Shown one piece after another: positions 29,808-32,328 of a stretch of DNA of 32,837 bases. Both the position numbers and the translations under genes were made by a program. Source of the stretch: Planctomycetota bacterium. GTDB lineage: Bacteria; Planctomycetota; UBA1135. The stretch is from positions 1 through 32,837 of the forward strand of contig JALUUN010000461.1 of assembly GCA_027021325.1 (NCBI GenBank), read 5' to 3'. The notes below the pieces were generated by a model. The model was not told the DNA's origin. It made no database searches and saw only the letters and a program-made list of their open reading frames with translations. The number at the start of each line of letters is the position of its first letter. Position 1 is the stretch's first letter.

Positions 29808-31165
29808 CGCAGCGACTCTTTGGAACCGATGGCATGCGCGGGGTGGCCGGGGAAGAGCCCCTGACCCCCGAGACCCTGGAACGCCTGGGCCGGATCCTGG
29901 CCGGGGAACTCCGTGCCGGGGCCGGCGAGGCAGCAGCGCCGCAGGTGCTCGTCGGCCACGACGGCCGCGAGAGCGGCGAGACCCTGGCCGCCGCCCTGAT
30001 CGCCGGCCTGAACCGCGGCGGGGTGGACGTGGACATGGTCGGCCTGGCGCCGACTCCCTGTGTCGCCTGCCTCACGGCCCAGGGCCCCTATGCCGCAGGC
30101 ATCGTCGTCTCCGCCTCCCACAACCCGGCGCCGGACAACGGCGTCAAACTCCTCGGCGCCGGCGGTGCCAAGCTCGACGACGCCGTCGAGGCGCGCCTGG
30201 AGGCGGCCCTGCACGAGGGGCGGCTGCCGGCGGAGGCCCGACAGGCCGGCAGCCAGCGCCGCGTCGCCCGTCTGGTGGGAGACTACGTCGCCTGGCTGCG
30301 CAACGAGGCCTTCCCGGATCTCGACCTCAAGGGCTGGTCCGTGGTCGTGGACACGGCGAACGGCGCCTGTTCCGAGGTCGCCCCGCGGATCCTGCGGGCC
30401 TTCGGCGCCGAGGCGATCCCGATCCACGACCATCCCGACGGGCGCAACATCAACCAGGGTTGCGGCGCCCTGCACCCCGAGGTCGCCGCGCAGGCCGTCG
30501 TCCAACAGGGAGCGACCGCGGGTCTCAGCCTCGACGGCGACGGCGATCGAGGCCTCCTGGCTGACACCCAGGGGCGCATCCTCGACGGCGACGCCCTCCT
30601 GGCGGGCCTGGCGCCCCGGCTGCACGCGGCCGGCCGCCTGCCCCACGGCACGGTGGTCGCCACGGTCATGAGCAACCTCGCCCTGGAGCAGTGGCTGGCA
30701 GCGCGCGGCCTGAGCCTCGTGCGCACGCCCGTCGGAGACCGCCACGTCGCCGCCCGCATGCGCAAGGACGGCTTCCACCTCGGCGGCGAGAAGTCCGGGC
30801 ATCTGCTCTTCGGCCCCGAGCACGACTTCCGGGGCGACGGCCTCTACACCTTCCTGAAGGCAGCAACCCTGCTGCGGGAGAAGGGAGAGGATCCCACGGC
30901 CCTGGCGTCGGGCTACGAGGATCTGCCCCAGGATCTGCGCAACCTGCCGGTCTCCCGCCGCGCCCCCCTGGAGGAACTGCCGCGCCTGCAGCAAGCGATC
31001 CGGGAAGCCGAGAAGCAGCTCGCCGGCCGCGGCCGGACCGTCGTCCGTTTCTCGGGCACCGAGCTGCGCCTGCGCCTGATGGTCGAGGCCGATGCCGAGG
31101 ATCTCGTGCGCTCGACCCTGGACCAGCTCGAAGCCGCCGCCCGCGAGGAGGGCATCCTGGCGTGA
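29804..31165 (+). CDS. glmM: Phosphoglucosamine mutase
   Basis: This is the C-terminal 453 codons of ORF 28526..31165. The GTG start at 29804 overlaps the cdaR stop as GTGA. The motifs are LFGTDGMRG, SASHNPAPDNGVKL, LSLDGDGDR, GGEKSGH and RFSGTE. Confidence 0.9.
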   Translation: MTQRLFGTDGMRGVAGEEPLTPETLERLGRILAGELRAGAGEAAAPQVLVGHDGRESGETLAAALIAGLNRGGVDVDMVGLAPTPCVACLTAQGPYAAGIVVSASHNPAPDNGVKLLGAGGAKLDDAVEARLEAALHEGRLPAEARQAGSQRRVARLVGDYVAWLRNEAFPDLDLKGWSVVVDTANGACSEVAPRILRAFGAEAIPIHDHPDGRNINQGCGALHPEVAAQAVVQQGATAGLSLDGDGDRGLLADTQGRILDGDALLAGLAPRLHAAGRLPHGTVVATVMSNLALEQWLAARGLSLVRTPVGDRHVAARMRKDGFHLGGEKSGHLLFGPEHDFRGDGLYTFLKAATLLREKGEDPTALASGYEDLPQDLRNLPVSRRAPLEELPRLQQAIREAEKQLAGRGRTVVRFSGTELRLRLMVEADAEDLVRSTLDQLEAAAREEGILA

Positions 31166-31848
31166 GCGGCGGGCTGGAGGGCTTCCTCGCCCTGGAGCTC
31201 TCGGGGGAACCGGCCACGGTCGCCCTGGCGGCCGGCGGCGGAATCCTGGAGCGACGGATCCCCGGCGAACGCGGCCGTGCGGTCCTGGCCGAGGTGGACG
31301 CTCTCCTCCGGCAAGCCGCCTTCACGAAGGGGGCCCTGCGCGCCGTGCTCTGCGGGCGCGGGCCCGGGAGCTACACGGGCCTGCGCATCGCCGCCGCCAC
31401 CGCCCGCAGTCTCGGCTTCGCCCTCGGCATCCCCGCCGTGGGCCTGCCCGGCTTCGACGCCGCCGCCCACGCGTGGTTCGAGGAGAACCCCGAGGCGGAG
31501 GGCCTGCAGCTCCTGCAAGACGCCTTCCGCAGGGAGTTCTACCTGGGGCGCGCCACCCCTTCGCCCGGCGGCACCCCTGCGGTGGAGATCAACGTCGTCG
31601 GCGGCGAGGAACTCCGCGAGCGCTGGGAGCCCCGGATCCCCTGGCTCGGTGACGCCTCGGTCCAGGACGCTCTTCCGCCGGGCGCCCCCCCACCGCGGGC
31701 GCCTCTCGCTCCACGCGCACGGGATCTCCTGCGTCTGGCCGGCGCCCTCGCCGCTCGCGGCCGGGATCCGCAGGACCCCCGTGCGTTCCCGCCGACCCCC
31801 CTCTACCTCCGGCCGGCCCTCACGAGGAAACGCGGCCAGCCGTCCTGA
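31162..31848 (+). CDS. tsaB: tRNA threonylcarbamoyladenosine biosynthesis protein TsaB (YeaZ)
   Basis: This is the C-terminal 228 codons of ORF 30691..31848. The GTG at 31162 overlaps the glmM stop as GTGA. The motifs are LALELSGEPATVAL and GRGPGSYTGLRIAAATARSL. Confidence 0.75.
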   Translation: MSGGLEGFLALELSGEPATVALAAGGGILERRIPGERGRAVLAEVDALLRQAAFTKGALRAVLCGRGPGSYTGLRIAAATARSLGFALGIPAVGLPGFDAAAHAWFEENPEAEGLQLLQDAFRREFYLGRATPSPGGTPAVEINVVGGEELRERWEPRIPWLGDASVQDALPPGAPPPRAPLAPRARDLLRLAGALAARGRDPQDPRAFPPTPLYLRPALTRKRGQPS

Positions 31849-31860
31849 ACAACAAGCAGA

Positions 31861-31920
31861 ACCGGCGCGCCTCCCGCAGAGGCGCGCCGGTCGGTGCCTC
31901 GGCGCCGGCGGACCGGCGCC
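31861..31920. terminator. Two GC-rich hairpins between convergent tsaB and the histone-like gene (candidate bidirectional terminator)
   Basis: Hairpin 1 has a perfect 13-bp stem, accggcgcgcctc (31861-31873) with gaggcgcgccggt (31879-31891), and a ccgca loop. On the minus strand it is followed by tctgcttgttgtt. Hairpin 2 pairs ggcgccgg (31901-31908) with ccggcgcc (31913-31920) around a cgga loop. Confidence 0.55.
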
Positions 31921-31929
31921 TCCCGTGGA

Positions 31930-32193
31930 TCAGAGATCCTGCGGGCGGAGGGTCTTGCGCTTGTTCGCGAGCGCGCGCTTCTCCGCCGCCTTGATGGCCT
32001 GGCGGACGTACTCGTCGAGGGCGGCGTAGAACTCGCTGGACACGTTGCACTTCGAGACCGCGCCCTTGGTACGGCTCTTCGAGATGATCATGTCCACCGC
32101 GCCGCGGCCCTTCCGCCTGGCGGTCGCCTTGCGCTTGGGGGTCGCCTTGCGGCGGGCGGCGGTCTTGGCCTTTGCCTTCTTTCGTGCAGCCAT
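31930..32193 (-). CDS. Small histone-fold-like (DUF1931 / bacterial histone-type) DNA-binding protein with a Lys/Arg/Ala-rich N-terminal tail
   Basis: 87 aa. GAGGA lies 9 nt upstream of the ATG (32191-32193). In residues 1-31, 15 are K/R and none is acidic. Residues 35-87, MIISKSRTKGAVSKCNVSSEFYAALDEYVRQAIKAAEKRALANKRKTLRPQDL, parallel the archaeal HMfB region ...VSDDARITLAKILEEMGRDIASEAIKLARHAGRKTIKAEDI. The protein ends right after that motif. Confidence 0.6.
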   Translation of the reverse strand: MAARKKAKAKTAARRKATPKRKATARRKGRGAVDMIISKSRTKGAVSKCNVSSEFYAALDEYVRQAIKAAEKRALANKRKTLRPQDL

Positions 32194-32299
32194 GGGTCTG
32201 ATTCCTCAGGATCGTTCTTGGTTCCGGTCCCCCGGTCTGCGCCAGCCGAGCGCTGCGGGGCACCTCGAAAAGGGAGGCTCCAAGGCCACCCATGCCAGG

Positions 32300-32328
32300 A
32301 TTGGAACGGAAAGCGGGAGTCCAGTCAA
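32300..32328 (-). promoter_or_regulatory. Candidate sigma70-type promoter for the histone-like gene
   Basis: The minus strand reads TTGACT (32328-32323), a 17-nt spacer, then TCCAAT (32305-32300). It lies in the most AT-rich stretch of the window and would give a ~100-nt leader. Confidence 0.25.

Follow-up and report, generated by a model that had tools for sequence, protein, structure and literature searches.

It was only in 2023-2025 that bacterial histones came to be accepted as real chromatin proteins; the two characterised in depth are HBb (Bd0055) of Bdellovibrio bacteriovorus and HLp of Leptospira perolatii. Expression and essentiality data are available for the histone of Leptospira interrogans, and all three proteins have very short tails or none. 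Histones with a truncated alpha3 helix were defined and split into subtypes by Schwab et al. 2024 (PMC11390915), one of which is called face-to-face (FtF). Here we describe an 87-amino-acid (aa) protein of the FtF type with a long basic N-terminal tail, encoded by an uncultured Planctomycetota bacterium (UBA1135). Its gene lies in a stretch of 32,837 nucleotides (nt), hereafter the window, which spans positions 1-32,837 of the forward strand of contig JALUUN010000461.1 (assembly GCA_027021325.1). The coordinates of the features mentioned below are collected in Table 1.

FtF histones are tetramers that carry conserved K16, R48, N52, R54, T56 and D61 (in hidden Markov model numbering), and a closed, torus-shaped homotetramer is the defining criterion of the subtype (Schwab et al., PMC11390915). 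In alpha3-truncated histones in general, alpha3 is reduced to 3-4 residues, and alpha2 is shorter than in nucleosomal histones (PMC11390915). R48 and N52 make the contacts between the two dimers, and both are absent from the ‘bacterial dimers’ such as HBb, which do not assemble beyond the dimer; Planctomycetota is named among the main bacterial phyla with FtF histones (PMC11390915). In the crystal structure of HLp, R49, S52 and N53 reach over the tetramer interface to touch F63, T61 and R55 (Hu et al. 2025, PMC12701072). In the same protein, R55 and D62 form the RD clamp, the main DNA contacts are S14, K15, K17, K21 and R59, and T56 and T57 are located in the L2 loop; HLp is tetrameric in solution, about 60 bp of DNA are wrapped around it, and micrococcal nuclease leaves fragments of 35-72 bp (PMC12701072). 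The DUF1931 proteins constitute a separate cluster of pseudodimers, which lack the canonical DNA-binding residues (Hu et al., PMC12701072).

The window has a G+C content of 72% and is crowded with long spurious open reading frames (ORFs) in all frames, so that an open frame by itself means little. An earlier reading of the letters alone (the sequence-only reading) had proposed a histone ORF in this region, and we recovered an ATG-initiated 87-aa frame at exactly the same place with the same translation. This ORF is a real gene rather than a chance product of G+C-rich DNA, as (i) it has numerous homologs, (ii) the G+C content at third codon positions (GC3) is 0.88 in the tail-coding part and 0.96 in the core-coding part, and (iii) all of the 15 lysine codons are AAG. 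The protein was matched by 610 database proteins at E<=0.01, and a profile search against 1.84 billion cluster representatives yielded 777 family matches. Relatives are encoded in 406 species-representative genomes, and the identical 87-aa protein is present on three metagenomic contigs, the longest of which is 71.9 kb. The genome matches of the family are exclusively metagenome-assembled genomes, mostly of Planctomycetota, with Eisenbacteria, Krumholzibacteriota, Latescibacterota, Methylomirabilota, Myxococcota and a few other phyla also represented. The computed mass, pI and net charge of the protein are 9.6 kDa, 11.4 and +21, respectively.

The core of the protein, downstream of the tail, has the histone fold in its alpha3-truncated form, a conclusion on which profile matches, the AlphaFold2 (AF2) model and the Foldseek search agree. 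When the single sequence was searched against PDB, the hits were weak (9F2C, E=0.0028; 9QT0, E=0.68). With a profile built from the alignment of 64 relatives, the E-values dropped to 8.7e-10 for HTkC of Thermococcus kodakarensis (9F2C) and to 7.4e-5 for HLp (9QT0). The archaeal histone HmvA was a marginal match of the same profile (E=0.098), in which ‘NkRktlrpqDl’ was paired with ‘EGRKTIKARDI’; the parallel that had been drawn by eye between KRKTLRPQDL and the archaeal GRKTIK..DI segment thus reappears in the profile alignment. In the AF2 model, which was built on the family alignment, two helices cover residues 39-49 and 53-76, with a predicted local distance difference test score (pLDDT) of 83-93 over residues 51-80. 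The last 11 residues are non-helical and end in PQDL, and no alpha3 was predicted, just as the sequence-only reading had supposed. The top PDB matches in Foldseek were again HTkC (9f2c) and HLp (9qt0), with a probability of 1.0, target-normalised TM-scores of 0.69-0.72 (0.72 for HLp) and identities of 32-37%, followed by HBb (9ezz and 8fvx; TM-scores of 0.65-0.67, 22-24% identity) and then by eukaryotic H3 and other histone folds. The alpha2 helix comprises 24 residues in the model and is aligned without gaps to those of HLp and HTkC, the two histones compared in this respect. By alignment with HLp, the protein terminates one residue past the clamp aspartate.

As a separate observation on the core, a cysteine (C49; codon 49, 32047-32049) is near-invariant in the L1 motif KCNVS, except in one sub-clade that has serine instead (KKSNVS). 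HLp and HTkC both lack a cysteine at this position.

The residues that distinguish the subtypes place the protein with HLp and HTkC. In the alignment with HLp, R73, N77, R79, K80 and T81 correspond to R49, N53, R55, T56 and T57, respectively, and R83, D86 and L87 to R59, D62 and F63, while S40, R41 and K43 in alpha1 correspond to S14, K15 and K17. Accordingly, counterparts of R49, N53 and R55, of the R55-D62 clamp and of the contacts S14, K15, K17, T57 and R59 are all present. R79, T81 and D86 make up the RxTxxxxD motif, which combines the RD clamp with the L2 threonine. No variation was seen at R73, N77, R79, T81 and D86 among the 64 relatives, and conservation is at least 90% at K80 and at L87. 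All the sequence features of the subtype being found, the protein is, by its signature residues, an FtF (HLp/HTkC-like) alpha3-truncated histone; this placement is our own and draws on those residues and on the profile matches.

The sequence-only reading had assigned the protein to a DUF1931/Bdellovibrio class, and this assignment has to be replaced by the HLp/HTkC subtype, as the R/N residues for dimer-dimer contact are present. An HBb-type histone is contradicted by the sequence, in which R73 and N77 are invariant whereas the bacterial dimers lack the R/N pair. A related question is whether an alpha3-truncated histone of this kind acts as a dimer that bends or coats DNA, like HBb, instead of as a wrapping tetramer. 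The HBb structures are good Foldseek matches, the RKT motif with K80 is typical of bacterial dimers, and ‘bacterial dimer’ histones are on record for Planctomycetota, too (PMC11390915). Nevertheless, the family profile that reached HTkC and HLp did not reach HBb at E<=1 in the PDB search, the identity to HBb is considerably lower than that to the FtF structures, and the bacterial dimers do not have the arginine and asparagine that are invariant here. We therefore regard action as an HBb-like dimer as unlikely.

The DUF1931 part of the assignment fared no better. No match to DUF1931 (PF09123) was found for the window protein at E<=10, and 11 of the 64 relatives gave matches below threshold (best E=0.0069). 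There is one 53-aa fold in the protein, the DNA-binding residues are kept, and we rejected the identity with DUF1931 pseudodimers on these grounds together with the absence of an above-threshold PF09123 match. Other classes were not indicated, either. CBFD_NFYB_HMF (PF00808) gave no match for the window protein and sub-threshold matches for 11 of the 64 relatives (best E=0.012), the winged-helix domain of linker histones H1/H5 (Pfam Linker_histone) was not detected in the window protein, and the full-length alpha3 of about 10 residues that defines the archaeal/nucleosomal class is absent in the AF2 model. The protein could in principle still have another role, such as that of a basic protein that associates with RNA or ribosomes, of a specific regulator, or of a non-DNA-binding relative of the DUF1931-type pseudodimers. 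Schwab et al. cautioned that prokaryotic proteins with a histone fold need not all organise genomes (PMC11390915), and the sub-threshold DUF1931 matches among relatives would fit such a role. Against it stand the invariance of the canonical DNA-binding and RD-clamp residues, which DUF1931 proteins lack, the single rather than doublet fold, the stand-alone housekeeping context without a partner gene, and the net charge of the protein. We consider such a role very unlikely.

Combining the above, we propose that the gene encodes a nucleoid-associated FtF histone that works through the tetramer mechanism set out further below, with a probability of roughly 0.8. Several observations weigh against this proposal. 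Scans of the 87-aa protein against Pfam and NCBIfam gave no matches even at E<=10, and the Pfam scan of the 64 relatives left only sub-threshold traces of DUF1931, CBFD_NFYB_HMF, Histone and HC2. A Pfam match to a histone or DUF1931 family, which had been suggested as a check, is thus not obtained, and homology is visible only through the family profile and the predicted structure; since the single-sequence Pfam scan is empty, that check alone would have led to the dismissal of a genuine fold. The domain being tiny, the E-values in Foldseek are weak (0.012-0.024), and the predicted TM-score of the AF2 monomer is 0.47, an obligate dimer having been modelled as a single chain. HLp K21 corresponds to S47 in the window protein, although most relatives have lysine there. 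K80, the lysine of RKT, was linked by Schwab et al. more to nucleosomal and bacterial-dimer histones than to the FtF consensus; HTkC also carries an RKT-type lysine at this position. Finally, the long-tailed relatives include no studied member, and tails of 34 residues could alter or prevent wrapping by a closed tetramer.

Among the known systems, HTkC (PMC11390915) is the best match in both sequence and structure, with 37% identity. The motifs VS.EFY.AL and GRKTL occur in both proteins, which would also belong to the same torus-tetramer family. HTkC differs in being archaeal and tail-less, in having glutamate at the position of the invariant N77, and in coexisting with nucleosomal histones. 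HLp (9QT0/9QT1/9QT2; PMC12701072), the orthologue of which in L. interrogans is LA_2458, belongs to the same alpha3-truncated bacterial type, and it is also encoded by a single-copy, stand-alone gene. The identity to HLp is about 32%, and HLp has TT in L2 and K21, whereas the window protein has KT and S47. The first six to seven residues of HLp are not resolved in the crystals, in contrast to the 34-residue K/R/A-rich tail of the window protein. The two also come from different phyla, and the neighbours are smc and map in Leptospira but tsaB, glmM and alr in the window. HBb (8FVX, 9EZZ) shares the alpha3-truncated fold and the RKT...D motif, but it lacks the R/N dimer-dimer residues and, as a dimer, bends or coats DNA rather than wrapping it (PMC11390915). 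The protein falls into the class of bacterial FtF histones that Schwab et al. catalogued from Planctomycetota, Myxococcota and other phyla (PMC11390915), with a phylum, signature residues and positively charged N-terminal tails in common. Their description in that paper takes the form of a summary statement and supplementary figures, and the window protein is unnamed in the public collections that we searched.

The basic N-terminal extension of the protein is not an oddity of a single sequence. Its first 31 residues contain eight lysines, seven arginines, nine alanines and no acidic residue, and the earlier count of 15 K/R in 31 residues is therefore exact. The best 120 homologs all have a common core, LIISKSRTKGAVKKCNVS.(E/D)FY.ALD..VR..IK.AE.RA.AN.RKTL.PQDL, and by pattern match this core is preceded in 118 of them by a basic stretch starting with MA(A/K)(K/R)KK. 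The tails are 8-55 aa long in these 118 proteins with gene-caller starts and 6-60 aa long in 74 genome loci, with a median of 18 aa in both sets. The main residues of the tails in the 118 homologs are K (34%), A (25%), R (9.5%), T (7%), G (6%) and P (3.6%), and, the last position excluded, the tails contain five acidic residues in total. The 34-residue tail of the window protein is typical of its clade, since the median is 33 aa in the sub-clade with the gene order of the window (17 aa elsewhere). According to Hocher et al. 2023, long tails are absent from most singlet histones of bacteria, and positively charged N-terminal tails are mentioned in the summary statement of Schwab et al. for bacterial FtF histones of Planctomycetota, Myxococcota and others (PMC11390915). 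Judging from these sequences, basic tails are the rule in the FtF class and not unusual in that context; for this subtype, the supposed rarity of tailed histone-fold proteins among bacteria is not borne out.

The tail would be lost if translation began at the internal ATG (Met35, 32089-32091), in which case the product would be a tail-less 53-aa histone and the basic stretch an open but untranslated leader. Tail-less relatives of 56 aa do exist (P0143, P0162 and P0220), and a longer database variant of HLp was judged to be wrong, the shorter form being authentic (PMC12701072). Nevertheless, the internal ATG is not conserved as a start codon, because position 35 is leucine in 65 of 74 homolog loci, where no internal start is available. 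The MAA[KR]KK terminus is conserved across several phyla, and the reading frame stays open through the length-variable tails in about 70 loci, with repeat periods in multiples of three. The near absence of acidic residues, the tail GC3 and the uniform AAG codons point in the same direction. The Shine-Dalgarno-like GAGGA, which had been noted as the ribosome-binding site, is present in front of the first ATG; on its own it is weak evidence for the upstream start, as an SD-like 4-mer occurs in only 33 of 76 homolog loci. Taken together, an internal start is extremely improbable, and the preference of the sequence-only reading for the start at 32193 is upheld.

The evidence indicates that the tail is a translated, selected and fast-evolving low-complexity appendage, which to judge from the homologs grows by in-frame duplication. 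Tandem repeats were found in the tail-coding DNA of 29 of 76 homologs, among them 16 of the 23 with tails of at least 30 aa. The period is a multiple of three in 28 of the 29, the exception being an artefact of start calling; a simple start rule overcalled a few tails in this analysis (161 and 433 aa), and only medians and repeat periods were used. The AF2 model leaves the N-terminus unstructured (pLDDT of about 50), and the tail is, according to this prediction, disordered.

Selection for charge only, with arginine replacing lysine as genomic G+C content rises, was considered and dropped, as replacement of lysine by arginine in the tails showed no correlation with genomic G+C content (rho=0.12, p=0.30). 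Lysine is the dominant basic residue of the tails even at about 74% G+C (L033, L011, L039 and other loci with 72-75% G+C), and its retention might reflect a requirement for lysine specifically rather than for charge alone. The tail of the window protein is itself unusually rich in arginine (seven of the 15 K+R). It also contains a single TPKR motif (codons 16-19, 32137-32148, within KATPKRK of codons 16-22), which is not conserved in the homologs. We take this motif to resemble the S/TPKK-like minor-groove-binding or kinase-consensus-like motifs of H1 and sperm histones.

In composition, the tail resembles the K/A-rich segments of the C-terminal domain of eukaryotic H1, of chlamydial Hc1 and Hc2, and of the C-terminus of mycobacterial HupB, which are likewise disordered, very basic and repetitive. 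The tails of two relatives gave sub-threshold matches to Pfam HC2 (PF07382; best E=1.8e-4). The resemblance is compositional and implies no homology, and the window protein has no globular winged-helix domain of H1. Its tail is also N-terminal to the histone fold, a topology closer to that of a core-histone tail.

How the protein may work can be pictured from the HLp and HTkC structures. Residues 35-87 are predicted, from the model and from homology, to fold as alpha1-L1-alpha2-L2, and two such monomers would dimerise head-to-tail via alpha2. Given the invariant interface residues, two dimers would then join into a closed torus tetramer as in HLp and HTkC, with R73, N77, R79 and the C-terminal PQDL making the contact. 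By analogy with HLp-DNA structures, molecular dynamics and micrococcal nuclease data, about 60 bp of DNA would run around the perimeter of the tetramer, with predicted contacts from S40, R41 and K43 of alpha1 (K48 lying nearby) and from K80, T81 and R83 of L2. The four 34-residue tails, with 15 K/R each and about +60 per tetramer, would exit from the N-terminal end of the DNA-contacting alpha1. Their composition suggests that they neutralise phosphates on the wrapped or neighbouring DNA, leading to higher affinity, compaction or bridging, much as the H1 C-terminal domain or other K/A-rich extensions of bacterial nucleoid-associated proteins may do. The gene would be transcribed alone from its own promoter, with a leader of roughly 100 nt, and transcription would end at the double hairpin. 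High abundance, with which the sequence-only reading had found the gene consistent, would be expected purely by analogy with Leptospira and Halobacteria; HBb, too, is a small abundant nucleoid protein.

It is attractive to speculate that the long K/A/T-rich tails of this planctomycetotal FtF clade are more than generic charge and represent a compaction or bridging module, similar to the H1 C-terminal domain, fused to a DNA-wrapping core tetramer. Their length could be tuned rapidly by in-frame tandem duplication to set the compaction of the nucleoid, and the lysines could be targets of reversible acetylation. We regard this scenario as doubtful at present. If it is genuinely the case, bacteria would possess an analogue of tail-based chromatin regulation with an origin independent of the Asgard/eukaryote lineage.

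The protein itself is an uncharacterised member of a recently described class, and both the class and its basic tails are already in the literature. The gene does not change existing knowledge and will not surprise a specialist. The points worked out here that go beyond the summary statement of Schwab et al. are the conservation of MAA[KR]KK, the range of 6-60 aa in tail length, the origin of tails in tandem repeats and the conserved promoter pattern. The literature that we found on FtF histones and Planctomycetes consists of the papers of the Hocher and Schwab groups, with no experimental study of a long-tailed member among them. The gene is a clean example of a large, wholly uncultured, Planctomycetota-centred branch that combines a wrapping-type core with a long H1-like basic tail. 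With its start, tail/core boundary, interface residues, promoter and terminator mapped, it offers a defined construct for asking what histone tails do in bacteria, and the tail-less and short-tailed relatives are natural controls.

Table 1. Positions of the histone gene, its protein segments and its candidate signals in the window.
Feature	Positions	Strand	Remarks
Tailed alpha3-truncated (FtF-type) histone ORF	31930..32193	-	87 aa, complete; ATG 32193-32191, TGA 31932-31930
Basic tail MAARKKAKAKTAARRKATPKRKATARRKGRGAVD, predicted to be disordered	32092..32193	-	Codons 1-34; 8 K, 7 R, 10 A, 1 acidic (last residue)
Tandem repeat in tail-coding DNA	32109..32159	-	18 nt (6 codons), 2.8 copies
Histone-fold core	31933..32091	-	Codons 35-87; alpha1-L1-alpha2-L2 and 4-residue alpha3 remnant; from profile and Foldseek
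alpha1	32047..32079	-	Residues 39-49; S40, R41, K43 are counterparts of HLp DNA contacts S14, K15, K17
alpha2, dimerisation helix	31966..32037	-	Residues 53-76; R73 is the counterpart of tetramer-interface R49 of HLp
NKRKTLRPQDL	31933..31965	-	Residues 77-87; N77 tetramer-interface residue by HLp alignment; PQDL, truncated alpha3
R79-x-T81-x4-D86	within 31933..31965	-	RD clamp with the DNA-binding L2 loop; R83 is the counterpart of R59 in HLp
GAGGA, Shine-Dalgarno-like	32203..32207	-	9 nt before ATG
Candidate promoter TTGACT-N17-TCCAAT	32300..32328	-	Starts 135 nt upstream of ATG; pattern picked post hoc
Terminator-region hairpin 1	31901..31920	-	8-bp G+C stem, 4-nt loop
Terminator-region hairpin 2	31860..31892	-	15-bp stem, 3-nt loop, then CTGCTTGTTGTT; between the convergent histone gene and tsaB

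The histone gene is monocistronic by geometry, being convergent with tsaB (31162-31848, + strand) and divergent from a gene for a 377-aa protein that starts at about 32384 (+ strand). The convergent side downstream continues with glmM, a gene for a 383-aa protein, a gene with a DAC domain (cdaA-like), folP and ftsH, and the divergent side upstream comprises the 377-aa gene, alr and others. The nearest named relatives of the FtsH encoded in the window come from Planctomycetota metagenome-assembled genomes, at 62-68% identity. The order alr / 377-aa gene / histone gene / tsaB / glmM recurs in 23-38 of 80 homologous loci. The gene thus sits in a stand-alone housekeeping context without a partner gene. 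The twin hairpins that had been described together with this isolated position are both present and both rich in G+C, and the 91-nt region 3' of the stop codon folds with -57 kcal/mol (z = -4.18 against 200 shuffles). Neither a second histone copy nor an HU-like gene was found within the window, a result that pertains to the window and is uninformative for the whole genome. Scans of the window against Rfam at gathering thresholds and for tRNAs gave no matches.

As to the candidate promoter that had been proposed for the gene, a strict sigma-70 scan detected none, while TTGACT-N17-TCCAAT fits a pattern that is conserved in position upstream of most homologs. As this sequence was chosen post hoc, a chance-expectation figure is meaningless, and its support comes from the comparison among loci. 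On the sense strand, TTGAC was found within 220 nt upstream in 61 of 76 loci, and on the opposite strand in 28. For 58 of the sense sites the distance to the start codon is 80-140 nt, and about 17 nt further on comes an A-rich, -10-like hexamer (TCAAACT, TCAAAAT, CACAAT or TCCAAT). This pattern supports a dedicated candidate promoter and a leader of roughly 100 nt.

The predicted leader (within 32194-32328, - strand) varies little in length among most loci (equivalents in L004-L083), and in one sub-clade a common GCGCGCCAGTTCGC block is found just after the -10-like element. A leader of such conserved length could be regulatory. On the same contig but outside the window, a gene for a 1202-aa protein (L001, 3852-7460), which gave only a faint match to YhdP, lies in the divergent upstream operon and adjoins alr and a nucleotidyl-transferase gene.

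Lastly, six proteins of 114-124 aa encoded elsewhere than in the window (P0157, P0159, P0160, P0163, P0164 and P0169) consist of two alpha3/FtF-like histone folds in tandem. NVSGDF...RA.ANGRKT is retained in both halves, and none of the proteins has a basic tail. They look like covalent pseudodimers of the FtF fold, which, unlike DUF1931, have kept the RKT DNA-binding motif.

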